Shown here: positions 975 through 15,656 of the stretch, one piece after another
Layout of the letters: every line of letters starts with the position of its first letter
How positions within the stretch are numbered: position 1 is the stretch's first letter
Assembly: GCA_044868695.1 (NCBI GenBank)
Contig: JBIOWP010000142.1
Coordinates: 1 to 15,656 of the forward strand
DNA length: 15,656 nucleotides
Reading direction: 5' to 3'
Origin: a bacterium
GTDB lineage: Bacteria > Sysuimicrobiota > Sysuimicrobiia > Sysuimicrobiales > Kaftiobacteriaceae
Made by a program: the position numbers and the translations under genes
The notes under the pieces: model-generated
What the model was told of the DNA's origin: nothing
The model's database searches: none
The model's input: only the letters and a program-made list of their open reading frames with translations

Positions 975-2729
975 ATGCTGGATCTTATGACCGGGGCGTC
1001 CGGCCCTGTAGTCGGCGTCACGCAAGGCAGGCCGGAGTTCTTGGCCAGGAAGTACGCGGTCAGTTCGAGCCACTATCTGGCCACGATGACCGGCCTGCGC
1101 ATGTTCGCGCTTGGGGGAAACGCTGCGGATGCGGGTGTGGCCGCTGGGATCGCGCTCAACGTGCTCGAGCGCCACCTGACAGATTTTGGCGGTGTGGCGC
1201 CGATCATGTTCTTTCGGCCCGGGATGTCGCGCCCTGAAACGATCGCCGGGGTTGGATGCTGGCCGCGCCGGCTGACCCTCGAGCGGTATCTCGAGCGGTA
1301 CGGGGGCGACATGCCGATCGGCGCGCCGCGGTACGTGACGCCGGCGGCGCCGGACGCGTGGTTGACGGCGTTGGCGCGATACGGCCGCCTGACGCTGGGC
1401 GAGATCCTGCAACCGGCATACGAATTGTGCGAAGGGTTCCCGGTCTACGGCCGCCTCGCGCGGGCGATTGCCAACCTGGCCTCCCGACTCCGTGAATGGC
1501 CTGCCAGCGCACGGGTCTTCCTGCCCAACGGCCGGCCGCCGCATGTGGGTGAAATCCTCGTGCAGCGCGAGCTGGGTAGCCTGTTTCGACGACTGATGGA
1601 CGTGGAGCGCGGCGCCGCGCATCGCGGACGCGAGGCGGCTATCATGGCGGCCCGGGACGAGGTCTACCGCGGCGAGATTGCGCACCTCCTTGCTGTCCAT
1701 GCCGAGCGGACCGGCAGCGAGTTGGACGCGGAGGACCTGGCTGCCTACCGTGTCGCCGTGGAACCGTCGATCTCGTCGCCGTACCGAGACGTGGAGGTAC
1801 ATGCCTGCGGTCCATGGTCACAGGGCCCGCTCCTGCCGATGGTCTTGAATCTGCTGCAGGGAACGAATCCGCGGCACCTGGGTCAGGGAATCGCAGCCTA
1901 CTTGCACTATCTCATCGAGGCGATCAAGCTTGCGTGCGCGGACCGAGAAGCTTTCTTCGGCGACCCGAATTCCGTCGACGTGCCGATCGCGGGGCTGCTC
2001 GATCCTGACTATTCGGACGAGCGGCGGCGCCTCATCGATCCGGCTCGCGCGTGCCCGCGGCTCCCGTTGCCCGGGAATCCGTGGCGGTACGAGGGCCGCT
2101 CGGGCCCCGCGGGACACGTTCCGGTTGTCGCCGCCGGCGCGCCGCAGCCCGATACGTCCTTTGTGTGCGCGATGGACGCCGATGGCAACGCCTTTTGCGC
2201 CACGCCATCCGACCCCGGCATGAGCGCGCCCCTCGTCGATGACCTCGGCATTATCATCTCAACGCGCGGGGCCCAGCTGTGGACCACGCCGGGACACCCG
2301 TCGGCGATTGCGCCCGGGAAGCGTCCGCGGTTGACGCCAAACCCCGCCATGCTCGTGGCGTCTGGGCAGGCCGTGATGCCCCTGGGCTGTCCCGGCGGCG
2401 ATGCGCAGGTTCAAGCGATGGTTCAGGTGGTAGTGAATGTGTTGGACTTTGGGATGAACGTCCAGGCCGCTATCGAGGAGCCTAGAGTCATCTCGGCGAG
2501 TTTCCCTTCGTCCTTTCATCCCCACCCGTACGAACCCGGAGTGGTACGCGTCGAGGGCCGCATCCCCCCGCAAGTGCGGAACCGACTCGCCACACTCGGT
2601 CATACCATCGAGGTGCTGCCCGACGTCGCGCCGGTGGTGGCCGCGGTCTGCGCGATTCGGCGCCGGGACGGCGGTGTGCTCGAGGCCGGGGCGGATCCTC
2701 GTCGCGAAAGTTATGCCGCCGGCTGGTGA
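975..2729 (+). CDS. Gamma-glutamyltransferase family Ntn-hydrolase (no signal peptide)
   Basis: 584 aa. GGNAADAGVA, DFGG, GPWSQG, EAIKLACADR, nucleophile site PD-TSFVCAMDADGN, PGKRP, GCPGG and C-terminal GADPRR motifs. GAGGT RBS upstream. Confidence 0.92.
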   Translation: MLDLMTGASGPVVGVTQGRPEFLARKYAVSSSHYLATMTGLRMFALGGNAADAGVAAGIALNVLERHLTDFGGVAPIMFFRPGMSRPETIAGVGCWPRRLTLERYLERYGGDMPIGAPRYVTPAAPDAWLTALARYGRLTLGEILQPAYELCEGFPVYGRLARAIANLASRLREWPASARVFLPNGRPPHVGEILVQRELGSLFRRLMDVERGAAHRGREAAIMAARDEVYRGEIAHLLAVHAERTGSELDAEDLAAYRVAVEPSISSPYRDVEVHACGPWSQGPLLPMVLNLLQGTNPRHLGQGIAAYLHYLIEAIKLACADREAFFGDPNSVDVPIAGLLDPDYSDERRRLIDPARACPRLPLPGNPWRYEGRSGPAGHVPVVAAGAPQPDTSFVCAMDADGNAFCATPSDPGMSAPLVDDLGIIISTRGAQLWTTPGHPSAIAPGKRPRLTPNPAMLVASGQAVMPLGCPGGDAQVQAMVQVVVNVLDFGMNVQAAIEEPRVISASFPSSFHPHPYEPGVVRVEGRIPPQVRNRLATLGHTIEVLPDVAPVVAAVCAIRRRDGGVLEAGADPRRESYAAGW

Positions 2730-2791
2730 TTGTCGAACACGGTGCTTTGCGATCTCATCAGGTGCAGCGACATTAAGCGGGGGGTGATGCA

Positions 2792-4342
2792 ATGATGCTC
2801 GGCAGGTGGTGGAAGATCGTTTCGCTCTTTGTCAGTGCGGCGCTCGTCCTCGCCGCGGGCTCGGCCGTGGCGACGCAGGCGCAGACGCCCCGCACCCTGG
2901 TCGTGGCCCAGGGCGCCGACATCGTCACCGGCGACCCGGCCAAGAGTACCGCGCTCGCGACCATTGCCGTCCTGGCAAACATCTACGACACGCTTATTCA
3001 CCGGGATGTCAGCCTGAGTCTCAAGCCCGGACTGGCGCTCTCCTGGCAGGCCGTCGACCCCACTACCTGGGAGTTCAAGCTGCGCAAAGGCGTAAGATTT
3101 CACAACGGTGAGCCCTTCAATGCCGAGGCCGTCAAATTCTCGTTCAACCGAATGCTGGATCCCGCGACGAACTGGCCGGGCGCCGGGTCCCTGCGGCTGA
3201 TCAAGTCGGTGACCGTGGTGGACGACTACACGGTACGATTCGCCACCTCGCAGCCCTGGCCGGTGTTGCCGCGGCTCCTTGGGTACTACGGGATGATTGT
3301 GCCGCCAGGTTACCTGACGCAAAGTGGTCCGGACGCGCTCATCCGTCGCCCCGTGGGTACCGGACCCTACCGCTTCGTGAACTGGGTCAAGGATGACCGC
3401 GTAGAACTCGAAGCCAATCCTGACTATTGGGGCGGCAGGCCGAAAATCGACCGCGTCGTCGTTCGCGTCATCCCCACGGATGCGGCGCGGGTTGCGGAAC
3501 TGCTGGCTGGGTCGGTTCAAATGGCCCCCCTCTTGCCGCCCGAACTGTTCAGTGCCGTAAGGACCTCATCGAAGCTGAACCTGTCCGTCGGCAAGAGTCT
3601 GAGTGTGTTCTTCGTCATCCTCAACATGGTCAACGTCCCCAAGGACAAACCGCTGGCCGATCCACGGGTTCGGCAGGCCCTCAATTACGCGATCGACCGC
3701 CAAGCGATCTTAACCAGCGTCATGCGCAACGTGGGTACGCCGGTGTCGACCTTCTGTACCGAGGTGATGGCGGGCTGCGACCCGTCCATTCCGCCGTTCT
3801 CGTACGATCCGGACAAGGCCCGCGTGCTGCTGCGCGAGGCTGGCTATGCGAACGGGTTCGACTTCAGCATCAGCGGGACGAGCGGCTCCTACCCTGGCGA
3901 CCGCGATATTGTCCTCGCTGTGGCCGATCAACTCACCCGCGTCGGGGTACGCACGAAAGTGGACATCACGGAGATCGGCGTTCAGCTGAAGGCCGTACTC
4001 GCTCGGGAGCTCCAGGAGGACGGCTGGTTCACGCGATTCACCGATTTCTTCGGGATCAGTACCATCATTCCGCTCCGAGCATTCTATTCGCCCGGCGAAT
4101 GGTCTCAGTGGCGACCGGGGCACGCCCCGTTCAACCAACTGGTCGAGGCGGCGCAGGCGGCCCCCGACGAGGCAAAACTGGCCGACATCTCCAGGCGCCT
4201 CCAGTTAATGTACAAAGATCAGGCGCCGGCCATCACGCTGTTTGGCGCGCCTAACGCCTACGGCATGAGCCGCGATCTGGAGTACACGCCCCGGCCGGAC
4301 CTGGAATTGTACCTGTTCGACGCGTCTTGGAAGAGTCGTTGA
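2792..4342 (+). CDS. ABC transporter substrate-binding protein, family 5 (DppA/OppA/NikA-like)
   Basis: Sec-type signal peptide without lipobox. IYDTLI, LALSW, FKLRKGVRFHNGEPFNAEAVKFS, PVGTGPYRF, DPRVRQALNYAIDR. Confidence 0.95.
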   Translation: MMLGRWWKIVSLFVSAALVLAAGSAVATQAQTPRTLVVAQGADIVTGDPAKSTALATIAVLANIYDTLIHRDVSLSLKPGLALSWQAVDPTTWEFKLRKGVRFHNGEPFNAEAVKFSFNRMLDPATNWPGAGSLRLIKSVTVVDDYTVRFATSQPWPVLPRLLGYYGMIVPPGYLTQSGPDALIRRPVGTGPYRFVNWVKDDRVELEANPDYWGGRPKIDRVVVRVIPTDAARVAELLAGSVQMAPLLPPELFSAVRTSSKLNLSVGKSLSVFFVILNMVNVPKDKPLADPRVRQALNYAIDRQAILTSVMRNVGTPVSTFCTEVMAGCDPSIPPFSYDPDKARVLLREAGYANGFDFSISGTSGSYPGDRDIVLAVADQLTRVGVRTKVDITEIGVQLKAVLARELQEDGWFTRFTDFFGISTIIPLRAFYSPGEWSQWRPGHAPFNQLVEAAQAAPDEAKLADISRRLQLMYKDQAPAITLFGAPNAYGMSRDLEYTPRPDLELYLFDASWKSR

Positions 4343-4385
4343 TCCGGCAATCCGCACCGAACGTCCAGCGGGTGCCGAACCAGCA

Positions 4386-5315
4386 GTGAGCGGCTATCTG
4401 GTCCACCGGCTGGCTCTTTCGTTGATCGCCATGCTGGGCGTGATCACGATCGTGTTCATCCTGCTGCACGTCAGCGGCGATCCCGCCTTGCTGCTCGTGA
4501 CGCAGGATGCGACGCGGCAGGACATCGAGCGGATCCGGCAGACCTACGGCCTGGATCGCCCGCTCTCCGTGCAATACGTGCGATTCATCGAGCGCGTCGC
4601 CCGCGGCGATCTCGGATATTCGTACCGGCAGGGCCTGCCGGTTACCGAACTGATCGCCGGCCGGATCAGCGCGACATTCAAGCTGGCCCTTGCTTCCCTT
4701 GCCGTGGCGATCGTGCTCGGGGTGACGCTCGGCATGGCGGCAGCCGTGCGGCGGGGGTCGGGAGTTGATACGACGGCCATGACGGTTGCGCTCCTCGGGA
4801 CGAGCATGCCGAGCTTTTGGCTGGGGCTGCTGCTGATCATCGTCCTCGGCGTCAAACTGGGCTGGCTTCCGGTCTCCGGTTACGGCGGTCTCGACCATCT
4901 CGTCATGCCTGCGTTCGTACTCGGCGGTTTCTATGCGGCACAGGTCAGCCGGCTCACGCGAACGAGCCTGCTCGAGGTCCTCGCTCAAGACTACATCCGC
5001 ACGGGGCGGGCCAAGGGCCTGAGGCCTCGTACGGTGCTGTTCAGACACGCCCTGCGCAACGCGGCGCTTCCGGTGCTCACGGTGCTTGGACTCAGCTTCG
5101 GGCAGATGCTTGGCGGAGCGATCGTCGTGGAGTCCATCTTCGCCTGGCCGGGCATGGGACGCCTCGCCGTACAGGCGGTGCTGGGCCGCGATTTCCCGGT
5201 CGTACAGGGCGTCACGATCGTCGGCGCGGCTGTGTTTCTCGCCGTCAATCTTACCGTGGATCTGATCTATGGCTGGGTCGACCCTCGCCTTCGAAGCGCC
5301 GCGCAGCGGGCGTAG
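4386..5315 (+). CDS. ABC transporter permease (DppB/OppB-like)
   Basis: GLDRPLSVQY, GDLGYS, MPSFWLG, EAA loop QDYIRTGRAKGL, VESIFAWPGMG, DLIYGWVDPR. Confidence 0.95.
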   Translation: MSGYLVHRLALSLIAMLGVITIVFILLHVSGDPALLLVTQDATRQDIERIRQTYGLDRPLSVQYVRFIERVARGDLGYSYRQGLPVTELIAGRISATFKLALASLAVAIVLGVTLGMAAAVRRGSGVDTTAMTVALLGTSMPSFWLGLLLIIVLGVKLGWLPVSGYGGLDHLVMPAFVLGGFYAAQVSRLTRTSLLEVLAQDYIRTGRAKGLRPRTVLFRHALRNAALPVLTVLGLSFGQMLGGAIVVESIFAWPGMGRLAVQAVLGRDFPVVQGVTIVGAAVFLAVNLTVDLIYGWVDPRLRSAAQRA

Positions 5316-6183
5316 CGCCGCGCGCGCGTCGCCGCTCCGCCGCCTCTTGCGTAGTCCCTCGGGGGCCGTTGGTTCTGCGCTCCTGGCCGTGATCCTTGCG
5401 GCCGGGTTTGGCGGTTCCTTCGTGACACCCTACGACCCGACCGCGCAGAATCTGAGCATGACGGTGCATCCGCCGTCATTGACGCCAGTGCGGGGTAGCG
5501 TCCACCTGCTCGGCACAGATCAATTGGGACGCGACATCTTCAGCCGGCTGTTGGTCGGCCTTCGGATCTCCCTGCTAATGGCGCTCACGGTCGTTCCGGT
5601 CTCGCTGATGCTCGGCCTCGCGGTCGGGATGGTGACTGGCTACCGCAGCGGCTGGCTCGACGTTGCGCTCATGCGCCTCGTCGATGCTCAACTATCCATC
5701 CCAACGCTGCTTCTCGCGGTGGCCGTGGTCGCGGTGCTCGGGACGGGGCTGTTCCAAATTGTGGCGGTGCTGGTGATCGCGGGGTGGCCGGGTTACGCGC
5801 GCGTCGTGCGCGCCGAGGTCCTGGCCCTGCGCCAACGCGAGTTCGTGGCGGCGGCCCGTGCGGTGGGCGCCTCCGACCTCCGTATCCTCGCTCGCCACGT
5901 CCTGCCGAACCTGCTCCCCACCATGCTGGTGCTGGGCACCCTGCATCTGCCGGTGGTGATCATCTTCGAGGCCGCGCTGAGCTTCCTCGGCCTCGGCATC
6001 CAACCGCCGATGCCCAGCCTGGGCCAGATGATCGCCGGGGCGCAAAGCCTGTTGTGGCAGGCCTGGTGGATGCCGGTGATACCCGGGGTCGCCATCACGC
6101 TGGTGGTGCTCGCGTTCAATCTGTTGGGCGACCGCATGCGGGACGTGCTTGATCCACGGCTGCGGGGACTCGGACCTGCGTGA
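5269..6183 (+). CDS. ABC transporter permease (DppC/OppC-like)
   Basis: HLLGTDQLGRDIFSR, EAA loop EFVAAARAVGAS, FEAALSFLGLG, FNLLGDRMRDVLDPR. The start is approximate (47-nt overlap with the upstream gene). Confidence 0.93.
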   Translation: MAGSTLAFEAPRSGRSAARASPLRRLLRSPSGAVGSALLAVILAAGFGGSFVTPYDPTAQNLSMTVHPPSLTPVRGSVHLLGTDQLGRDIFSRLLVGLRISLLMALTVVPVSLMLGLAVGMVTGYRSGWLDVALMRLVDAQLSIPTLLLAVAVVAVLGTGLFQIVAVLVIAGWPGYARVVRAEVLALRQREFVAAARAVGASDLRILARHVLPNLLPTMLVLGTLHLPVVIIFEAALSFLGLGIQPPMPSLGQMIAGAQSLLWQAWWMPVIPGVAITLVVLAFNLLGDRMRDVLDPRLRGLGPA

Positions 6184-6325
6184 CGATGGAGGGCAGAGCT
6201 TCCATTAGCGCTGGGGTCCCGCCAGGGCTCGAACAAGGAAGCAAGGATCTCCTAAGCATGAAGCATGAACTGCGGCGCTCTGGAAATGCCCGGAGATGAA
6301 CGTCACAGCACCCTGTACGCTTCGG

Positions 6326-7120
6326 CTAGCGCCGCCTCTGTGCCCGCCGCCACGTCACCGGCAGTCGCATCATCTGATTCGGCTCACGGGCATCGTACAG
6401 CCAGCGGAGTGCGGATTCCAGGATGTCCCGCTGCGTCTGATTGTCCTGCGGCTCGCCGTAGGGATCGCCGTACGGGAATCGCACATATAGCGCACGCGGA
6501 ACCCCCACCCCGAAGGTCACAACCGGGGCCATCGTGACGCTCACCGTCGCGATGCCGGCATGCTCGAGAACATTCTGGGCAAGTCCCACGGACCGGTGGC
6601 ACATGGGTCAGCCGGGGGAGAACACCGCCGCATCCACCCGATCCGATTCAAGCCGGGCGGCCAGCGCCGGCGTGGTGACCCAACGGAACCTGCTCGGATC
6701 GGGGATGAATCCCATGCACCCCCCATGCCACGCGGCGACGCTCCCTACCACCCCTTCGGCCGCGAGCTCGCGGAGGCGGTCGATCGGGAACATGCAGTTC
6801 GGATCTTTGTCGGGATCCGTGTGATCGTAGTGATCGTGCGCGAACCGCAGCCGGCCGGCATCCACGTCGCCGGAGATCCAGCGGATCGAGTCGTCCCCGC
6901 TGTGGGACTCAAGATCGAACGGCGGGTCGCCCACCACGTAGACACCGCCTGTGGACACGAGGGCGACGCGGGCTGCCGGTAGCGGCTTGGTGAGACGGTG
7001 GAAGGCGATCGCGCTGTTGCGGACGGGCACGAAGTGTCCGGTATGCGACACGAGGGACCGCTCGTTGTAATCCGCCCACTGAGCCTCGAGGTCAGGGATC
7101 TCGAACGGAATAGGATCCAT
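6326..7120 (-). CDS. Selenoprotein of the PrdB/GrdB (D-proline/glycine/sarcosine/betaine reductase component B) family, 264 aa, Sec171 encoded by in-frame UGA
   Basis: ORFs 6608-7120 and 6326-6604 share a frame and are separated only by TGA (6610-6608) and CCC. Read-through gives DAAVFSPG-U-PMCHRSVGLAQNVLEHAGIATV, matching the PrdB-type UxxCHRS...E-xAGI pattern. The N-terminal part has VALVSTGGV, HYDH, DPNCMFPIDRLRELAAEG and MG motifs; the C-terminal part has VPRAL..FPYG..YG. Confidence 0.88.
6580..6595 (-). promoter_or_regulatory. Putative bacterial SECIS hairpin
   Basis: mRNA after UGA reads CCCAUGUGCCAC-CGGUCC-GUG-GGACUUG. GGUCC pairs with GGACU, closing a G-initiated apical loop (GUG) that starts 19 nt after the UGA. 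Folded by eye only. Confidence 0.6.
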
Positions 7121-7152
7121 TAGCGTGGAGCCCGCCTCATCGCTCGCGGCCC

Positions 7153-7995
7153 TCAGTCATACCGGTACGGGAACAGGGGAACACCCGGATGATTGGCGGG
7201 GTGGCCGATCGGAAACGGCGTGTCGTAGCTGTCGATCTGATACCAGGTGTTCTCCGGCCCGTGGATCATCGCGTCCTGCCAGAGATCCACTGGAACGCCC
7301 CGCGTCTCGACCTCCTTGATCGCCCCGTCGGCGTCGGCCACGTCGAACGCGATGTGGTTGAGCCGCGTGGCTTCGATGTCATGACGGAGGAAGAGAGGGA
7401 GAAGGCTCACCTGCCTCCCGACGGCATCCACCGGCGCATCGCCGTACTTGATCGTCTGGATGAACTCCCCGCGGCGGTCGAAGGTCTGGACACGATCCAT
7501 CCCAAACACCTCGGCGAGCCAGGCCAGCGTGGGCGCATGGGATACGACGTCGAGGGCGACGTGATGGACTCCCCGCACGAGACTGCGGACGGCCGGATCC
7601 CACGCCACGTCCGCCATCCGGGTCGACGGGTCGCCGGCCGGCGCCAGGCGCGGACCCAGCACGCTCGTGATGCTCACCGCGAGCCCGCCGGGGGCCCGGA
7701 TGATGTCCTCACCGTCGACTTCGTAGCCGCGCCGGCGCAGTCCGGCAACCGCCTCATTCACCGGTACGTCGACGGCGATGGCGATGTAGCGCAGGCGGCA
7801 GCGGGGGATGAACGGCCGGTTGTAGAGCACGAGCAGCGGGTCGCCCCCGCCGGGGACACCGACCGTCCTCACGTACTCTCCACGCCAGTACCCGTGGGCG
7901 AGCAACTGCAGGCCAAAGACGTCGCGCAGATATCGCTCCATACGCGTAGGGCTGGACAGCTCCAGTGCCACATGCGCGACCCGCTGCGCCCGCAC
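7153..7995 (-). CDS. Tandem VOC (glyoxalase/extradiol dioxygenase superfamily)-like protein, paralog C
   Basis: 280 aa, GTG start 2 nt after the upstream stop. Repeated beta-alpha-beta-beta-beta style modules AHVALEL..DVFGL, RYIAIAV..LRRRGY, HHVALDV..EVFGM, NHIAFDVAD..IHGPE..YQI. Clearly homologous to two other ORFs in the window. Confidence 0.78.
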   Translation of the reverse strand: MRAQRVAHVALELSSPTRMERYLRDVFGLQLLAHGYWRGEYVRTVGVPGGGDPLLVLYNRPFIPRCRLRYIAIAVDVPVNEAVAGLRRRGYEVDGEDIIRAPGGLAVSITSVLGPRLAPAGDPSTRMADVAWDPAVRSLVRGVHHVALDVVSHAPTLAWLAEVFGMDRVQTFDRRGEFIQTIKYGDAPVDAVGRQVSLLPLFLRHDIEATRLNHIAFDVADADGAIKEVETRGVPVDLWQDAMIHGPENTWYQIDSYDTPFPIGHPANHPGVPLFPYRYD

Positions 7996-7997
7996 CG

Positions 7998-8903
7998 CTA
8001 GCCCCCGACCTTGGCGGGCGTCTTCGGCTCGTAGCGGGTGAAGGCGTCGCGCCCCTCGGGCGGGTACGGGATGAAGGTCACCCCCGTCGGGTTCGCCGGG
8101 TGATCCACGGGGAACGGGGTGTCAAAGCTATCGATCTGGTACCAGACCTCCTCAGGCCCGTGGATCATCGCGTCCTGCCACAGATCGACCTTGGGGCCTC
8201 TCGCCTCCACCTCCCGGATCGCCCCCTCCGAGTCGGCCACGTCGAAGGCGACATGATTGAGCTCCACACGGGTCGTCCCACGCCGCAGGAACTGCGGAAA
8301 GATGCCGCGCCTCCGGCCGATCGGGTCTCTCGGAGCGTCGCTATATCTAACGCTGGAGATGATCTCGCCGCGGCGATCGTGGGTGGAGCGGTGGTCGAGC
8401 CCGAAGGCCGCTTCCAGCCAAGCGAGCACGGGCTCGTGCTCGGGCACATCGGGAGCCACGTGATGGATCCCCCGCCAGAGGCAGGGAAGATCCGGATCGA
8501 CGGGCTCGGCGGCCATCTTCGTCGCCGGATCGTGCAGCGGCGTCGGGCGCGGGGCCGTGTAACTGTCGATCTTGAGGTGGAAGTCGAAGGGTGCGATTAC
8601 GATGTCTTCGCCGTCCACCTCGTAGCCGCGGCGGCGCAGGTCCGCAACCGCGTCGTCGATCGATCCGCCCACGGCCAGCCCGACGTGGCGCAGGCGCCCC
8701 CGAGGGATGAAGGGGCGGTTGTAGAGGATGAGAAACCCGGGGTTCTCGCGCTGATGGTGCGGGGAGCCGACCACCCGGACGTACTCGCCCTTCCAATACC
8801 CGTGCCGAAGTAGCTGCAAACCGAAGGCATCCCGAAGCCATCGCTCCATCCGCGTGGGTGACGACAGCTCAAGCGCTACGTGCGTTATTCCCACCACCCT
8901 CAT
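7998..8903 (-). CDS. Tandem VOC-like protein, paralog B
   Basis: 301 aa from the ATG at 8903 (MRVVGITHVALELSSPTRMERW), with AGGAGG RBS upstream. The start aligns with the paralog at 14431. The upstream part of the 636-aa ORF call is spurious. Confidence 0.8.
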   Translation of the reverse strand: MRVVGITHVALELSSPTRMERWLRDAFGLQLLRHGYWKGEYVRVVGSPHHQRENPGFLILYNRPFIPRGRLRHVGLAVGGSIDDAVADLRRRGYEVDGEDIVIAPFDFHLKIDSYTAPRPTPLHDPATKMAAEPVDPDLPCLWRGIHHVAPDVPEHEPVLAWLEAAFGLDHRSTHDRRGEIISSVRYSDAPRDPIGRRRGIFPQFLRRGTTRVELNHVAFDVADSEGAIREVEARGPKVDLWQDAMIHGPEEVWYQIDSFDTPFPVDHPANPTGVTFIPYPPEGRDAFTRYEPKTPAKVGG

Positions 8904-8958
8904 CGCTGCTGCCCTCCTCTTATTACCTCCGGTCCGCCCAATCTCGCCTGCCACTGGA

Positions 8959-8974
8959 GGTATGATATGATACC
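8959..8974. promoter_or_regulatory. Palindromic operator / internal promoter, site 1
   Basis: GGTATGATATGATACC is 1 mismatch from the palindrome GGTATGATATCATACC. On the minus strand it reads TG-G-TATCAT, resembling an extended -10. It lies in the intergenic gap upstream of paralog B. Confidence 0.6.
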
Positions 8975-9013
8975 AATTCACCCGGCGCGTCCGGACCCCT
9001 TCCCCGCGCGTGC

Positions 9014-9973
9014 TCAGTCCTGCCGGCTCTGCGCGATGATGTCCACCCCCGCATAGCGGCTGAACGCTGCCGTCAACGCGGCAGTGACCGGCCCCGGGAT
9101 GGGCAACAGCACCTGGCCGTTGAGTCGTCTGACCGGCAGCACGGCATAGCTCGTGGCCGTGACGATGGCCTCCTCGGCTTCGACGAGCTGGCTGAGATGC
9201 ACCGGGCGGCGATCGACGGGGATGCCCGTCTTCGGAGCCAGCTGCAGGAGGACGCGGCGGGTCACACCCTCGAGCGCCACCGCGTCCGGCGGGGTGACAA
9301 GGCGGCCGCCCATGACGTACATGATGTTTGCGCCGTCGCTCTCCGTCACGTAGCCCCGTGCATCGACGAGCAGCGGAAGCGCCTCGGGCCGGAGATGCCC
9401 GATCTCCACGTGCGCCAGCGTCATCGCCAGGCGGCTGTGGGTTTTGGCCCGGGGATCGACGCCGCCCTCGGCGGGAATGCGAAGCGTGGGCACCTCGATG
9501 ATCAGGCCTTCCGCGTAATATCGGGCAAAGCGCTCGAACGCGATCGGGCGGCACCCGATGAGCACGGTGGGCGGACCTTCCGGCGGTGCCGCAAACGGCC
9601 CCGGCGTGAGCCCCCGTGTGATGCGGTGCGTGAGGATCACATCGTCGTGCGGACGCAGGAGGTGGCGGTTCCGGTCGAGGACGCCCAGCGTTAGCTCTTC
9701 GAGCTGGCGGCGGGAAAGCCCGGGATCGAGCCGCAGGTACTCGAGCGTGGCGAAGAGCCTGTCGACATGCCAGTCGAGATGGAAAGGCGCATGCCGGTAG
9801 GTGCGCGTGGCCTCGAAGGCGGCATCTCCCAGGATGAACCCCCGGTCCTGCGGCGAGATCCAGACCTCCGATTCCGGGACGAACCGTCCGTTCCAGTACA
9901 CTATCCACGGCGCGGCGTGCGCCGGGGCGCCGGACTGCGGCGCTTCACGTGACGTCACTCGATCCGTGGCCAT
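9014..9973 (-). CDS. PLP-dependent fold-type IV enzyme (branched-chain/D-amino-acid aminotransferase, ADC lyase family)
   Basis: YWNGRFVP, DRGFILGDAAFEATR, HVDRL, catalytic Lys in DPRAKTHSR, TESDGANI, LEGVTR, TATS. The start is ATG 9973 or TTG 9976, with GGAGG upstream. Confidence 0.9.
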   Translation of the reverse strand: MATDRVTSREAPQSGAPAHAAPWIVYWNGRFVPESEVWISPQDRGFILGDAAFEATRTYRHAPFHLDWHVDRLFATLEYLRLDPGLSRRQLEELTLGVLDRNRHLLRPHDDVILTHRITRGLTPGPFAAPPEGPPTVLIGCRPIAFERFARYYAEGLIIEVPTLRIPAEGGVDPRAKTHSRLAMTLAHVEIGHLRPEALPLLVDARGYVTESDGANIMYVMGGRLVTPPDAVALEGVTRRVLLQLAPKTGIPVDRRPVHLSQLVEAEEAIVTATSYAVLPVRRLNGQVLLPIPGPVTAALTAAFSRYAGVDIIAQSRQD

Positions 9974-9997
9974 CAATCGCTCCCCTCCCGCGTGTTG

Positions 9998-10897
9998 TCA
10001 GTGGCCGCGAAGCCGTACGTCCAGCGCATCGCGCAGGCCGTCTCCCACGAGATTGAAGCTCAACACTGTCAGCATGATCACGAATCCGGGGATGAGGGCG
10101 ATCCACGGGGCCAGCTCGAGGTACCCGCGGCCCTCCGCCACCATGACCCCCCATGACGGCGTCGGGGGCCGGATGCCAATGCCCAGGAACGAGAGGCTGG
10201 CTTCGGAGAGCATGGCCGTGGCGATCCGCGTCGTCACGAGAACGATGAGCGACGACGCGAGATTCGGCACGATGTATCGTAGCAGGATCCGGGCCTGGGA
10301 GGCGCCGACTGCTTCCGCGGCCAGGACGTAGTCGCGCTCCCGGATGCCCCGCGTCTCCGCGCGCAGCACCCGCGCGAACATCGGCACGCTCCCCACACCG
10401 ATCGCGACCATCACGTTCGTCAGCCCCGGTCCGAGCACGGCGATGAACGCCAGCGCCAGGAGCAGCAGCGGGACCGCCATGAGCATCTCGATGACGAAGT
10501 TCAGCAGGCGGTCCAGCGCGCCACCGGCGTACCCGGCGACGATCCCCATGGTGCCGCCGACCGCCGTAGCGATAATGACAACAACCACGCCGACGAGCAG
10601 GGAAATCCGCCCGCCCCAGATGACCCGGGAGAGGATGTCCCGTCCGAAGGGATCGGTCCCGAACAGATGGGTCCGAGACGGGGGCGACTCGAAATGCTCG
10701 ATGTCCTGCGCCGCCGGATCATAGGGGGCGACGACCGGCGCGGCCAGGGCGACGGCGATGAACATGGCCACGAAGAGTGCGCCCGCGCCGGAGCTCATCC
10801 GCGTCCACAGGACCGTCCGCCATAGGGCGAAGCGGCGGCGGGGCGCCGCTGCGGTAGCCTCCGCTCGGGGCAGACGGCCGACGCCCGCGTCGCTCAC
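9998..10897 (-). CDS. ABC transporter permease (DppC/OppC-like)
   Basis: HLFGTDPFGRDILSR, DYVLAAEAVGAS, EASLSFLGIG, PSWG, FNLVGDGLRDALD. GTGA overlap with the upstream gene. Confidence 0.95.
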   Translation of the reverse strand: MSDAGVGRLPRAEATAAAPRRRFALWRTVLWTRMSSGAGALFVAMFIAVALAAPVVAPYDPAAQDIEHFESPPSRTHLFGTDPFGRDILSRVIWGGRISLLVGVVVVIIATAVGGTMGIVAGYAGGALDRLLNFVIEMLMAVPLLLLALAFIAVLGPGLTNVMVAIGVGSVPMFARVLRAETRGIRERDYVLAAEAVGASQARILLRYIVPNLASSLIVLVTTRIATAMLSEASLSFLGIGIRPPTPSWGVMVAEGRGYLELAPWIALIPGFVIMLTVLSFNLVGDGLRDALDVRLRGH

Positions 10898-11832
10898 TGG
10901 TAGGAGGTCCGTGGGTCCAGGACAGTCAGTAGGAGATCGGTCAGCAGGTTCACCAGCACGATGGCCGTGCCGAAGACCAGGACCAGGACCTGGGTCAGCT
11001 GGAAGTCGCGGCTGTTGATGGCCGTGATCATCAACCAGCCCAGCCCCCGGCGCGCGAAGACGATCTCGACCACGACGGCCCCGGTCAGGAGATTGGCGAA
11101 CATCGTCCCGGCGGCCGCCGTCACGGGGATGGCCGCGTTTCGCAGGACGTGCTTCACTACGACGATCCGCTCCCTGAGCCCTTTCGCCCGCGCCGTCCGC
11201 ACGTAGTCCTGACCCAGCGTCTCGAGCGTGGCGGAACGTGTAAGCCGGGCGATGAGGGCCGCGAGGCCCAGCCCGACGACGGTGGCGGGCAGGACCAGCT
11301 GCACCAGCCCCGCGCCGGGCTGGGTGCCCCCGAAGATGGGGAACCAGTGCAAGCGGAAGGCGAAGACGTAAAGCAGGATGATGCCGATCCAGAAGGCCGG
11401 CGCGCTCAGCCCCAGCATGGCGCCGGTGAGCGACAGATAGTCCACGATCGTGTTCCGCTTCACCGCCGAGATCAACCCGGCCGGCACGCCGATGAGGACG
11501 GCGATGAACATCCCCGCCAGCCCCAGGTAGACCGTCGGCATGAAGTTCCGGTTGATATCCTCGATCACGGGCTGCTTGGTGCGGTAGGAGGTGCCGAAGT
11601 CCCCCCGCACCGCCTGCCCGACGAACCGCAGGAACTGCTCATAGATCGGACGGTCGAGCCCGAGGTCCTTTCGGATCTGCTCCAGCCGCTCTGGGGGGAC
11701 ATACGCGGCCTGCGTGTCGATGATGGCGTCCACTGGATCGCCCGGCGCGAGGTGCAGCATCAGGAAGACGCCGAGAAGAATCCCCAGCAGCGTCGGGACG
11801 AGCAGGAGCAGGCGATGACCGACGTTGCGCAT
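10894..11832 (-). CDS. ABC transporter permease (DppB/OppB-like)
   Basis: APGDP, LGLDRPIYEQF, GDFGTS, PAFWIG, QDYVRTARAKGL, VEIVF, LDPR. Confidence 0.95.
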   Translation of the reverse strand: MRNVGHRLLLLVPTLLGILLGVFLMLHLAPGDPVDAIIDTQAAYVPPERLEQIRKDLGLDRPIYEQFLRFVGQAVRGDFGTSYRTKQPVIEDINRNFMPTVYLGLAGMFIAVLIGVPAGLISAVKRNTIVDYLSLTGAMLGLSAPAFWIGIILLYVFAFRLHWFPIFGGTQPGAGLVQLVLPATVVGLGLAALIARLTRSATLETLGQDYVRTARAKGLRERIVVVKHVLRNAAIPVTAAAGTMFANLLTGAVVVEIVFARRGLGWLMITAINSRDFQLTQVLVLVFGTAIVLVNLLTDLLLTVLDPRTSYQ

Positions 11833-11854
11833 GCGCTGCCCTCAGCCCGGAAAG

Positions 11855-11889
11855 CCGTCGGCCCTGACCGGCGGCGTCGGGGCCGACGG
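11855..11889 (-). terminator. Intercistronic stem-loop between SBP and permease (partial terminator or mRNA stabiliser)
   Basis: CCGTCGGCCCTGAC (11855-11868) and GTCGGGGCCGACGG (11876-11889) form a 14-bp stem with one mismatch and a 7-nt loop. The mRNA continues CUUU, a weak U tract. Confidence 0.6.
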
Positions 11890-11897
11890 ATCAGGCG

Positions 11898-13439
11898 TTA
11901 GCGCTCGATGTCCATCCGGTAGAATTGCTGCTGCCACCACCCGAGGTTCGGCACCATCCCCTTCACGTAGCTGCGGGCGGCCGTGGCCTGGACGGTCGGG
12001 AACAGCGGCAGCGTGGGGAGGTCCGTGGCCAGCTGCTGCTGGATGCGCTTGAGGATGGCCACCCGCTGCTGCGGATTCGTCTCGCGCGCCTGGGTGTCGA
12101 TGAGCGTGTCAATCCCCCGGTCCCGGTACTGGCTCTGGTTGAGGACGGGGATCTCCCGGCCGTCCAACCGCGCCAGGTGCTGGCCGATCTCGGACTCGGT
12201 GGGATCGCCGGAGGTCAGGTCGAAGTCGCCGGCGCGCTGCCGGGGCCGCAGTGCGGCGCCGTCGAGCAGCTGGAGCTGCAGGTCCACCCCGACCTGCTTC
12301 CACATCGCCTGCACGAACGTCAGGATCGGGGGATGGTAGGCGGTATTGGGCGCGATCGCCGTCACGCGGAACCCATCGGGATATCCGGCCTCCCGCAGCA
12401 GCTGGCGCGCCTTGGCCGGATTGTACTCGTATCTGGGCACATCGCTCGTGAACCCATAGATCGCCGGAGGGATATGGGAGTGCGCGATCTGGCCTAGGAT
12501 GCCGGCCCCAACGCGCAGCATGATCGTCCGTCGGTCGAGGGCGTGTAGCATCGCCCGCCGCACGCGCACGTCGTTGAACGGCTTCCGCGAGTTGTTCAGC
12601 GTGAGTTGGTACACGCTGGCCGCGAACTGATCGTCGGCGTTCACGACAACATTGGGCGTGCGGCGGAGCAGCGCGATGTTCGGGAACTCACGCACGACCA
12701 TCATGTCGAGCTCTCCGGCGCGGAACGCCAGCACGGAGACGCTCTCTTCCAGGATGACCCGCATCTCGACCTCATCGATCTTGGGCCGGCCGCCAAAATA
12801 CTGGTCGTTGGCGACGAGCAGCGCCCCGCCCCGCACCTCGGCCCGGGCCACCCGGTAAGGGCCGGTGCCGATCGGACGGATGCAGTGCGAGCTCCCCCGC
12901 TCCTGGATCGCGCGGCGGTTGACGATGGCCGTGAACGCGGAGTTCGCGATAGTCACCAGGAAGGCCGGGAACGGCTGATCGAGCGTCACCCGGACCGTGC
13001 GCGGGTCGAGGATCTCAATCGACTTCACGCGGCGAAGGTCAGCGGAGCTATTCGCCCGCGTCTCCGGATTCAGCTGGCGTTCCCACGAGTATTTCACGTC
13101 TTCGGCCGTGAACTCCCCGTAGTTCTCGTGCCAGCGCACGCCGGAGCGGAGGTGGAACGTGAATACGGTGTTGTCGGGGCTCACGGTCCAGCGTTCCGCC
13201 AGGTCCGGCTCCACTTCCGAGAGGGACCCGGGCTTCTGCCGTACCAGCCCGTTGTACACGTTCATCGTAAGCTGCCAGTCCGGCAGACGGTTCGAGTAGG
13301 CCGGGTCGATGCAGGACGTCGGGAACGAGACGACCCACACCAGCCGCTTCCGTTCCTGAGCCTGCGCCAGCGGGAGCATTCCGGCCGCGAGCATCACAAC
13401 AAAGAGCCCGACCAGCATCCAGCGCGTCAGCCTACACAT
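11898..13439 (-). CDS. ABC transporter substrate-binding protein, family 5 (DppA/OppA-like)
   Basis: 513 aa from the ATG at 13439, with GGAGGAG RBS. Signal peptide ends AQA-Q. VYNGLV, PDLAERW, FHLRSGVRWH, FTAEDVKYS, PIGTGPY, DVRVRRAMLHALDR. Confidence 0.95.
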   Translation of the reverse strand: MCRLTRWMLVGLFVVMLAAGMLPLAQAQERKRLVWVVSFPTSCIDPAYSNRLPDWQLTMNVYNGLVRQKPGSLSEVEPDLAERWTVSPDNTVFTFHLRSGVRWHENYGEFTAEDVKYSWERQLNPETRANSSADLRRVKSIEILDPRTVRVTLDQPFPAFLVTIANSAFTAIVNRRAIQERGSSHCIRPIGTGPYRVARAEVRGGALLVANDQYFGGRPKIDEVEMRVILEESVSVLAFRAGELDMMVVREFPNIALLRRTPNVVVNADDQFAASVYQLTLNNSRKPFNDVRVRRAMLHALDRRTIMLRVGAGILGQIAHSHIPPAIYGFTSDVPRYEYNPAKARQLLREAGYPDGFRVTAIAPNTAYHPPILTFVQAMWKQVGVDLQLQLLDGAALRPRQRAGDFDLTSGDPTESEIGQHLARLDGREIPVLNQSQYRDRGIDTLIDTQARETNPQQRVAILKRIQQQLATDLPTLPLFPTVQATAARSYVKGMVPNLGWWQQQFYRMDIER

Positions 13440-13582: not shown

Positions 13583-14431
13583 TCAGCGGTTGTGATACGG
13601 CACCAGAGTCTGACCCGCTCGGTTTGCAGGATGATCCACGGGGAACGGTGCAGTGCGGCTGTCGATTTGATACCAGACCTCCTCGGGCCCGTGGATGATG
13701 GCATCCTGCCACAAGTCCACCGCGGCCCCTCGGGCCTCTACAACGCCGATCGCCCGCTCCGCGTCGTCCACCTCGAAGGCGATGTGGTTCAATCCGGTGT
13801 GGAACCGTCCGGGCCGGAGGAAGATCGGCAGAATGCTCATGCGCCGGCCAATGGCGTCCGTCGGCGAGCCGGGATAGTAGATCTGCGAGATGATCTCTCC
13901 GCGCCGGTCGTGATGCCGCTCGTAGGTCATCCCGAAGAGGTCCCGCTGCCAGTCCAGTAGCGCCCGGGGGTCGGCCGCATCGACAGCCACATGATGGATG
14001 GACCGCCACAGGCAGGGCAAATCGTCGTCAACCGGCTCGTCGGCCAGCACCGTCGCCGGATCGCCGACCGGCAGGAGGCGCGGGACCGTGTGGTGATCGA
14101 TCTTCACACGGAGGTCCCCGGGACCCGTGAGCAGGTCCTCCCCGTCCACCTCGTATCCCCGGGAGCGCAGGCCAGCCACGGCCTCCTCGACGGGCTCGTC
14201 CACGCCGACGGCGATGTGGCGGAGCCGGCCCTGGGGAATGAAGGGGTGGTTGTAGAGGTGGAGAAAGCCGCGACGGTCCCGATCGCCAGGCACTCCGACA
14301 ACCCGGACGTACTCGCCCTTCCAGTATCCGTGCCGCAGGAGCTGCAGCCCGAAGACGTCCCGGAGCCAGCGCTCCATCCGGGTCGGCGAGGAGAGCTCGA
14401 GCGCCACGTGCGTGATCCCCTCCACTCGCAT
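13583..14431 (-). CDS. Tandem VOC-like protein, paralog A
   Basis: 282 aa, AGGAGG RBS overlapping the upstream TAG. THVALELSSPTRMERW, RHIAV, HHVAVD, NHIAFEV, DLWQDAIIHGPEEVWYQID. Confidence 0.8.
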   Translation of the reverse strand: MRVEGITHVALELSSPTRMERWLRDVFGLQLLRHGYWKGEYVRVVGVPGDRDRRGFLHLYNHPFIPQGRLRHIAVGVDEPVEEAVAGLRSRGYEVDGEDLLTGPGDLRVKIDHHTVPRLLPVGDPATVLADEPVDDDLPCLWRSIHHVAVDAADPRALLDWQRDLFGMTYERHHDRRGEIISQIYYPGSPTDAIGRRMSILPIFLRPGRFHTGLNHIAFEVDDAERAIGVVEARGAAVDLWQDAIIHGPEEVWYQIDSRTAPFPVDHPANRAGQTLVPYHNR

Positions 14432-14442
14432 GTTGCGGCCTC

Positions 14443-15656
14443 CTAGTGAAACCCTCCGTCGGCGACGACGAGCCGGCCGTCGCGGAGGACTGCTCGGACG
14501 TCCCTCACCCGGCCGATATCCTCGAACGGATCTCCGGCGACGATCGTGATGTCGGCGGCTTTGGCCGGTTCCAGCGTCCCGATCTCGTCCTTAAGCCCCA
14601 CCGCCTCGGCTGCTAGGCGCGTCGCGCCGGTGAGCGCTTCGCGCGCCGTCGCTCCGGCGCGGACGAGCAGTTCCAGCGTCAGTGCGTACTCCCCGAAGGG
14701 TACAAGACTCCACCCCGCGTCCGTGGAGGCGACGAGTCGGACGCCGGCCCGGAGCATTCGACCGTAGTTGTTCAATCGCGCCTCCCAGGTCCGCTGCCTC
14801 GTCTCCCAATAGACCCGCTCCGTGGGACCCAACGCGGCCCACCCTGCGCGCGCACGCTCCAGGCTGCGGTAGGGCCCGGTGAGAGTGTGCCCGATGAAGA
14901 TACCCTGCTCGGCGATCCGGTCCACCAGCGCCGCATCGTACCCTACTTCGTCCCGGGACCGGTACAGGGAGGCGTGCTCGATGCCGTCCACGCCGGCCAG
15001 CGTTGCCCGGCGAACCGCCTCGATTGTATTCGCGTGCACGGTCACCTGCGTCTCATGGGAGCGCGCTTCGCTCACGGCTTCCGTGAGCTCCGCGACGCTG
15101 TACGTCGGGATCCAACTGTGGGTCCGCGGCGTGCCGCCCCCTTCCCCCACGACCTTGAACATGTCGACGCCGACCCTCCACAGGCGGCGGGCGACGCGGC
15201 GGATGTCCGAGACGGTATCGGCCTCGCCCCCCAGGTAGTACATGTGGCCGCCGGTAACAGTGATCGGGGAGCCGGCGGCGACGATCCGGGGCCCGGAGAG
15301 CCCACCCCGGGCGATGTGGTCGCGCAGATCCAGGACGACGCGACCCCGGCTGCCCAGGTCACGCACCGTGGTCACGCCGGAGGCGAGCGCGCGCTGAGCG
15401 TTGCGCACGGCCGTCAGCAAGAGCTCCGTGTCCGTGGCGCCCACGGTAAAGGTGTCGTTGGGCGTCCCATCTCCGGGCCAGGACAGGTGCACGTGGGTAT
15501 CGATCAGCCCCGGCAGGACCGTCGCCTCGCCGAAGTCCAGCACGTTTGCATCGCTCGGCGGCAGGGCGGCCCGAGCTACGCACTCCACCACCCGGCCCTC
15601 GTGTGGGATGGGACGGACGGCCCCGTCCTGGAGGACGGGGCCGTTCTCATCCGAGA
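14443..15656 (-). CDS. Metal-dependent amidohydrolase (Xaa-Pro dipeptidase-like subgroup), 5'-truncated by the window
   Basis: PGLIDTHVH (HxH), GVTTVRDLG, GPRIVAAG..ITVTGGH, FKV (Lys bridge), VHA, IEHA, STDAG, GTLEPAKAADI. The frame stays open to the edge, but the last ~58 nt appear inverted (see findings). Confidence 0.92.
   Translation of the reverse strand, partial: SDENGPVLQDGAVRPIPHEGRVVECVARAALPPSDANVLDFGEATVLPGLIDTHVHLSWPGDGTPNDTFTVGATDTELLLTAVRNAQRALASGVTTVRDLGSRGRVVLDLRDHIARGGLSGPRIVAAGSPITVTGGHMYYLGGEADTVSDIRRVARRLWRVGVDMFKVVGEGGGTPRTHSWIPTYSVAELTEAVSEARSHETQVTVHANTIEAVRRATLAGVDGIEHASLYRSRDEVGYDAALVDRIAEQGIFIGHTLTGPYRSLERARAGWAALGPTERVYWETRQRTWEARLNNYGRMLRAGVRLVASTDAGWSLVPFGEYALTLELLVRAGATAREALTGATRLAAEAVGLKDEIGTLEPAKAADITIVAGDPFEDIGRVRDVRAVLRDGRLVVADGGFH

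Follow-up and report, generated by a model that had tools for sequence, protein, structure and literature searches.

The closest described systems to the gene analysed here are the selenoenzymes PrdB and GrdB. According to the available text of a study of the C. difficile PrdA/PrdB enzyme (PMC11229817), PrdB needs the pyruvoyl subunit PrdA as well as its own selenocysteine (Sec), a U151C variant being inactive, and it is this Sec that attacks the substrate carbon. In the characterised relatives the attacked carbon is described as polarised by a pyruvoyl Schiff base, and for the betaine-type and fluoroacetate systems polarisation by the substrate's own leaving group has been proposed (available text of PMC11229817, PMC10838667, PMC13188914); one GrdB homolog is proposed to break fluoroacetate at its C-F bond with no pyruvoyl group involved (PMC10838667, in part). 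UxxC selenoproteins of the family PF07355 that are labelled PrdB have long been known and are abundant in metagenomes, as the accessible parts of several papers attest (PMC1088965, PMC2398784, PMC1794560, PMC5029168). 'PrdB' is counted there among the most abundant selenoprotein families of marine metagenomes (PMC1088965, PMC2398784), with 42 genes in the one study (PMC1088965) and 235 Sec and 110 Cys genes in the other (PMC2398784). In their available portions, both papers treat the metagenomic family as proline reductase and do not discuss a missing PrdA or a VOC-linked subgroup.

The PrdB-like gene described here lies in a 15,656-nt stretch of DNA, which was analysed as a whole and is referred to as the window (Table 1); the sequencing runs that cover most of it are soil metagenomes. 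The gene comes last in a co-directional run in the order amidohydrolase, VOC, solute-binding protein, two permeases, aminotransferase, VOC, VOC, PrdB-like. On the plus strand and convergent on it, 975-6183 holds a gamma-glutamyltransferase-family gene and, after it, another Opp/Dpp-type ABC set. At 340-875, also on the plus strand, a ParE/RelE-family toxin gene precedes a Phd/YefM antitoxin gene. ARAGORN found no tRNA in the window, and a promoter and terminator scan of 5900-9100 found neither.

Table 1. Features of the PrdB-like gene and its co-directional neighbours in the window
Feature	Coordinates	Strand	Remarks
PrdB-like (PF07355) gene	6326..7120	minus	264 aa with TGA read as Sec
SECIS-like upper stem GGUCC-GUG-GGACU	6582..6594	minus	loop G at 6589
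Cys174, predicted resolving Cys of UxxC	6599..6601	minus	
In-frame TGA, predicted Sec171	6608..6610	minus	same column as TGA of annotated clostridial PrdB
Two-domain VOC protein 3	7153..7995	minus	extradiol dioxygenase/HPPD architecture; invariant H145, H214, Q253; 32 nt upstream of PrdB-like start
Two-domain VOC protein 2	7998..8903	minus	301 aa
Class IV aminotransferase-family protein	9014..9976	minus	PF01063; below all NCBIfam cut-offs
Opp/Dpp-type ABC importer	9998..13439	minus	
Two permease-like ORFs	9998-10897, 10894-11832	minus	judged from translations
Family-5 solute-binding protein	11898-13439	minus	PF00496
Two-domain VOC protein 1	13583..14431	minus	
Amidohydrolase-family protein	14443..15591	minus	head of co-directional cluster

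An earlier note on this DNA had seen two same-frame ORFs joined at a TGA to give SPG-U-PMC-HRS, and this arrangement is confirmed, both ORFs being on the minus strand. The frame from 7120 to 6326 comprises 265 codons with one internal TGA (6610-6608) and a terminal TAG; the first ORF (7120-6608) encodes 170 aa ending in SPG directly before the TGA, and the second (6604-6326) encodes 92 aa. GC by codon position is of the coding type in both halves, and the 264-aa read-through protein contains the motifs HDHYDH (95-100), DPNCMFP (106-112) and UxxC (171-174). The TGA is not an assembly error: X3 and X4, two runs belonging to a separate study, have contigs that cross it, and no difference is listed there.

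The family match, for which the note had proposed an alignment to the GRDB Pfam family and PrdB as a check, extends across both halves of the read-through protein. The PF07355 score is 37.8 bits against a gathering cut-off of 22, and the best NCBIfam match, TIGR04483 (PrdB), runs continuously over residues 30-258 (E 7e-48, 163.1 bits), with each half matching its own part of the profile. The UxxC/CxxC motif is present at the catalytic column, and homologs bear out the prediction of Cys or Sec at this position: among the best 120 of 439, 90 end directly before the column, 24 have Cys and 6 have D, E or R. One of the 90 (P0083) has a divergent tail. In the 94 distinct genes for which DNA was available, drawn from relatives' genomes and from 80 metagenome loci picked on upstream motifs and ranked by similarity, the codon is TGA in 80, TGC or TGT in 14 and TAA or TAG in none; the annotated clostridial and lactobacillus PrdB have TGA at the identical column. 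Hairpins were counted in the 73 short-family TGA genes that are left when the seven long GrdB among the 80 are excluded. It had also been anticipated that standard pipelines would mis-call such a gene as hypothetical proteins; truncation does occur, but many of the truncated homologs are labelled PrdB rather than hypothetical.

Several variants of the motif were encountered among the homologs. In two members of the near subclade (P0002 and P0003) SPE-D-P-V-G replaces SPG-U-P-x-C, with both redox residues gone, and a third (P0060) ends at SPE; these three are possibly non-catalytic or binding paralogs, and the occurrence of D/G variants within the subclade implies that some members act without the redox pair. 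The Cys forms P0005, P0006, P0008, P0014 and P0018 are extended at the C-terminus; the added stretch contains a D-C-x-D-G-A-C-like motif that the Sec forms do not have and that might serve as an internal resolving or redox pair. A clade with U-P-L-D-H (UxxD), which includes L047, L058, L050 and L057, has kept the TGA and the hairpin and lost the resolving Cys. A PrdB-like copy in genome G061 (C315:893-1668; L107, L108) appears to be frameshifted near residue 136, where it falls into two search pieces, by what looks like either an assembly error or pseudogene formation.

Just 3' of the UGA the note had also described a GGUCC-GUG-GGACU hairpin with its loop 19 nt downstream. It is present at 6594-6582: bases 6594-6590 can pair with 6586-6582 around a loop at 6589-6587, whose G is the 19th base past the UGA. 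A small apical loop containing G is a described feature of bacterial SECIS elements (available text of PMC1088965), and the hairpin here combines such a loop with a position just 3' of the UGA. Folding 6610-6550, which had been suggested as a check, did not recover it: the minimum free energy (MFE) structure has an alternative CCCAUG/GUGGG stem in which the GGUCC-GUG-GGACU hairpin is not formed. That fold is not significant (z -0.86; 41 of 200 shuffles fold as well), and covariation was therefore used to assess the SECIS element. The hairpin becomes the MFE structure (-4.7 kcal/mol) after removal of the first 11 or 14 nt of a 45-nt piece, which would be roughly the length covered by the ribosome, and in a slightly different fold window its closing pair opens to leave a 6-nt loop. 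An Rfam scan of the full 15,656 nt gave no match.

In this copy five of the six core family pairs are formed, the sixth being a C16-U30 mismatch. All six are formed in 58 of the 73 short-family TGA genes against none of the 14 Cys genes, and the TGA genes average 5.5 pairs where synonymous resampling predicts 3.7, as compared with 3.07 and 3.00 for the Cys genes. The third position of the Gly codon, which is free to vary, tracks the upstream residue: Ser-TCC is accompanied by Gly-GGA in 33 genes, and Thr-ACC by Gly-GGT in 22, even though GGC accounts for 317 of 599 upstream Gly codons. For an eight-pair stem around a GUN loop in the 73 genes, pairing holds in 91.5% of cells, and in 83 of them both sides change, counts that take in related sequences and so overstate the number of independent covariation events; none of 500 shuffles scored as high, and slid registers were 14-47% paired. 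The geometry of five pairs with a loop G follows 174 of 64,255 genomic TGA triplets (0.27%).

The selenocysteine machinery that the note had proposed looking for was found in full. In the genome carrying the gene (G000, 95% complete in 162 contigs), selA, selB and tRNA-Sec occur together on contig C84, and selD, itself with an in-frame TGA, is on C146; across the phylum, selA is present in 77 of 94 genomes. The PrdB-like family is represented in G000 by this gene and one paralog (C52:19103-19885; L006, L021), with no further members found. The paralog is 43% identical, reads GG-U-PVC-LRS with TGA at the same site, and has a 7-bp SECIS-like hairpin stronger than that of the copy at 6326..7120. 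It sits behind an Opp/Dpp-type ABC operon and adjoins a ribosomal protein/ECF/truA region.

We predict with near certainty that the TGA at 6610-6608 is recoded to selenocysteine, and SelB bound to the hairpin would, with the same confidence, deliver Sec-tRNA at the UGA. A single 264-aa UxxC selenoprotein of the PrdB/GrdB family with a SECIS element, as the earlier note envisaged, is a prediction supported by the family scans, Cys/TGA usage, covariation and the machinery. Were the TGA instead a true stop, the gene would be split or a pseudogene, yielding pieces of 170 and 92 aa, and an ATG two codons past the TGA does open the 92-aa ORF; the weakness of the hairpin in this copy also makes some termination likely. 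We nevertheless regard a true stop as extremely unlikely, as the stop is always TGA (80/80) and alternates solely with Cys codons, conservation is lacking at the start of the second piece, where many homologs have V, L or I, the hairpin covaries in TGA genes only, and splitting would remove the catalytic residue.

Membership of the family does not, however, make the protein a D-proline reductase: 'PrdB/GrdB-like', the label first given to it, stands as far as family is concerned and fails as to D-proline reductase identity because the partner subunits were not found. Searches of G000 by tblastn with the PrdA, PrdH, PrdD, PrdE and PrdF sequences annotated in clostridial and lactobacillus operons returned nothing at E<=0.1, and the same queries returned nothing in the 80 metagenome loci (flanks searched by local tblastn, with 45 of the 80 loci at least 5 kb long); the controls were matched. 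PF09338 was not found in G000, G014 or G026, and its matches, in 8 of 41 genomes, each lie beside a long GrdB. GrdA was not found in G000, although it was found in 2 of 5 genomes, nor was GrdE found in this 95%-complete assembly. The TIGR04480 control was weak (one weak match among 5 genomes), so that the partner call rests on PF09338 and tblastn. A GrdE-like gene in G061 was considered as a partner and rejected, since it adjoins that genome's own long GrdB.

In a quick IQ-TREE maximum-likelihood tree of 116 rows, which left out pieces shorter than 170 aa and N-terminal-only proteins, the query falls in a 12-row clade (SH-aLRT 98), three canonical PrdB form their own clade at 100, and long GrdB make up a distant clade. 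The protein is likewise short for a GrdB type (264 against ~430 aa) and scores 48-53 bits against NCBIfam cut-offs of 65-800. Judged from its sequence, then, it is neither D-proline nor glycine reductase. One could still argue that the protein is a true D-proline reductase PrdB and that the assembly simply lacks its PrdA: PrdB is the best NCBIfam match, identity to annotated PrdB is 35-40%, many homologs are labelled PrdB, and with G000 incomplete and in 162 contigs a partner subunit could have been missed. This we hold to be very unlikely, given a TIGR04483 score of 163.1 bits against an equivalog cut-off of 300, the separate clade, PrdA, PrdH and PrdF not found in G000 or PF09338 in G014 or G026, and PrdA in none of the 80 metagenome loci when canonical prdB lies directly behind prdA in all three annotated controls.

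The VOC proteins of the neighbourhood belong to a family that, by its clustering, is small and isolated, with 91 hits at the 90% level collapsing to essentially one full-length 50% cluster. Their fold is of the two-domain extradiol dioxygenase/HPPD type (Z 17-19 over ~235 aligned residues, rmsd 3.5-4), with catechol 2,3-dioxygenase (1mpy; Z 19.3) and a Mn glyoxalase (3b59; Z 19.0) tied as best matches. With these two, HPPD and hydroxymandelate synthase they share the whole-chain fold and two invariant His at only 10-17% identity, and appear to differ, judged by motif spacing, in having Gln where the Glu ligand is expected. The metal triad of such dioxygenases is 2-His-1-carboxylate. H145, H214 and Q253 are invariant in 84 of 84 aligned rows, and the candidates for the third ligand, placed by motif spacing only, are Q253, E248 and D255.

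Within the phylum, the VOC family occurs in 3 of 94 genomes, which are kin, and these are exactly the three with a PrdB-like homolog of at least 60% identity; four genomes with homologs at 33-41% are without it. VOC and PrdB-like genes are directly clustered in the window, G014, L024 and L025, and lie on different contigs in G061. Matching contigs by size between the VOC and PrdB-like homolog lists gave 14 pairs, two of them checked on DNA (L008 and L025), against 1.5 after jittering, yet only 10 of the 32 VOC contigs of at least 4 kb were size-matched to a PrdB-like contig. Of the 80 metagenome loci, two have VOC neighbours and a further 17 share an AhpC/TSA-type gene, so the VOC link belongs to the subclade and not to the whole family.

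Gene order in G014 is nearly that of the window, with two tandem TGA-bearing PrdB-like copies, whose loops have diverged, followed by a PF00756 esterase and GGT. L025 reads ABC, VOC, VOC, PrdB-like, and in L024 four VOC genes are accompanied by isochorismatases, aminotransferases and a CMD gene. C10 of G000 carries close homologs of this CMD gene and of the isochorismatase and amidohydrolase genes of L024; there, 1028-7293 (L135) encodes a Rieske-like protein, an amidohydrolase_2, two isochorismatases, CMD, MFS and an amidohydrolase; several C10 genes are 74-91% identical to genes flanking PrdB-like and VOC genes in L024 and G061, and this segment is probably the other half of the same pathway. 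Overall, the subclade is accompanied by VOC proteins, ABC transporters, aminotransferases and amidohydrolases; the set of neighbours differs from one locus to the next, and none of them points to a specific substrate. The PF00756 esterase, which in G061 is on the same contig as a PrdB-like gene, was considered as a core gene and rejected for G000, where it had no match at E<=1e-10.

Elsewhere in the family other contexts were observed. A ~100-aa protein lacking a Pfam match is encoded directly upstream of the PrdB-like gene at G000:C52:19948-20208, L024:4201-4527 and L123:1700-2014; these proteins are 37-72% identical, and we note them as a candidate accessory subunit. Sec PrdB-like genes in L026 and L030 belong to a different conserved cluster, with PTS EIIC, phosphotriesterase-family, UroD-family and histidine phosphatase genes. 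Stop-free, stand-alone PrdB-like genes occur on plasmids of cultured alphaproteobacteria (L131:7896-8804 and L132:7710-8636, Roseomonas and Haematobacter), one of them directly behind a 900-aa class III aminotransferase fusion, and these hosts are tractable for work on the wider family.

The AF2 model of the PrdB-like protein (pLDDT 96.7) places U171 at the start of helix 172-187, the UxxC thus occupying a helix N-terminus preceded by a beta-strand. Conserved polar positions are HDHYDH, H26, H132 and DPNC. No solved relative was found by phmmer (0 matches), a profile search gave only weak ones (E>=0.011), and Foldseek gave none at E<=0.001; the best match with VIA (Z 9.0, rmsd 3.8, 140 aligned) was to generic alpha/beta proteins. 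The absence of solved relatives does not show the fold to be new.

What might such a protein do? The DNA itself shows one continuous frame, a UxxC column, a covarying hairpin, the Sec machinery, the VOC link and, in the searches made, no PrdA, GrdE or GrdA; the chemistry has to be argued by analogy. With partner subunits not found and the VOC neighbourhood in view, the protein likely helps to break down some other imported compound, and we lean, with modest confidence, towards a PrdA-independent Sec enzyme of the window's catabolic cluster, likely working without a pyruvoyl partner subunit. As no pyruvoyl subunit was found, attack by Sec171 on a pre-activated substrate is the most economical reading, and a catabolic role in which the Sec, as nucleophile, cleaves such a substrate seems to us plausible, if just short of probable. 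The selenolate of Sec171, placed where helix 172-187 begins, would attack a carbon with a good leaving group, such as an onium or a halide, or else an electrophile produced by the VOC or PLP enzymes encoded nearby; Cys174 would resolve the Se-adduct to a selenenyl-sulfide, to be re-reduced by a general cellular reductant. Delivery or later processing of the substrate would fall to the ABC importer, amidohydrolase, aminotransferase and VOC proteins.

A helix N-terminal UxxC following a beta-strand, as modelled, would also suit a thioredoxin-like Se/S oxidoreductase that reduces disulfides, peroxides or an oxidised partner (for example VOC metal or Cys sites) and cleaves no substrate bond. In the available text of PMC1088965 metagenomic PrdB is classed with the thiol-dependent redox selenoproteins; AhpC/TSA-family genes lie beside more distant members (the 17 loci) and CMD genes beside near ones. 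We judge such a role rather unlikely, since the conserved HDHYDH, H26, H132 and DPNC point to a pocket for a particular small molecule, the family members that have been characterised are C-N bond-cleaving enzymes (PMC11229817 and PMC13188914, in part), and the tandem paralogs of G014 with their diverged loops better fit substrate specialisation. Improbable, in our estimate, is a protein-bound stand-in for glutathione, in which the selenol would add to an electrophile, VOC isomerise the adduct and a hydrolase release the product: the putative His/His/Gln triad of the VOC proteins (third ligand placed by motif spacing), in place of 2-His-1-carboxylate, and the esterase found after the PrdB-like pair in G014 and sharing a contig with one in G061 would fit it, but that esterase is unmatched in G000, the folds that best match the VOC proteins include dioxygenases and HPPD no less than glyoxalase, and most family members have no VOC neighbour. 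Returning to the PrdA-independent enzyme, it is tempting to speculate, as a distinctly tentative proposal, that the VOC array and the Sec PrdB-like protein are together the conserved core of a selenium-dependent catabolic pathway, so far undescribed, in uncultured bacteria from soil and sediment that belong to at least two phyla. In it, a Sec enzyme lacking a pyruvoyl subunit would receive its activated substrate from VOC or PLP enzymes. If so, this would offer a first clue to the function of the abundant partnerless 'PrdB' of environmental metagenomes.

The recoding itself is an ordinary case in a known selenoprotein family that is routinely mis-annotated. A search of the literature, supplements and most subscription journals aside, found no paper on a PrdA-less or VOC-linked PrdB-like group, and the available text of the CSP1-3 paper (PMC11604079) has no mention of seleno, prdB or grdB; CSP1-3 is probably the phylum of the host, to judge from its being a phylum of one order and from an 'Armatimonadota' label on related VOC proteins. 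For the partnerless 'PrdB' of G000 and the loci examined, the D-proline reductase label is probably wrong, because PrdA was found in neither. The subclade offers a compact conserved neighbourhood of solute-binding protein, VOC array, amidohydrolase and aminotransferase, as well as natural Cys versions that are easy to express, and together these make the role of partnerless PrdB-like selenoproteins testable at the bench.

Set beside the known systems, the protein is nearest to PrdB (TIGR04483; C. difficile PrdA/PrdB, PMC11229817), with which it shares the single-domain length class, a full-length HMM match, 35-40% identity to annotated sequences, the TGA column and a UxxC-H-R motif. It differs from canonical PrdB in having UPMC rather than UGTC, in an extra N-terminal helix, in its separate clade and in a genome where no prdA, prdH, prdD, prdE or prdF was found; its pocket loops read HDHY and GFIP, where the three canonical PrdB have HGGY and GGGG. 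With GrdB, GrdF, GrdH and the fluoroacetate protein FarB it has in common a homologous Sec-bearing C-terminal domain (E about 1e-13 to 1e-14), but it is ~170 aa shorter than GrdB-type proteins, and GrdE and GrdA were not found in G000; FarE/GrdI provide a precedent for pyruvoyl-free activation (PMC10838667, in its available text). Finally, it shares PF07355, UxxC and the existence of Sec and Cys forms with the metagenomic 'proline reductase PrdB' family, to which, matched by description rather than by sequences, the gene almost certainly belongs.
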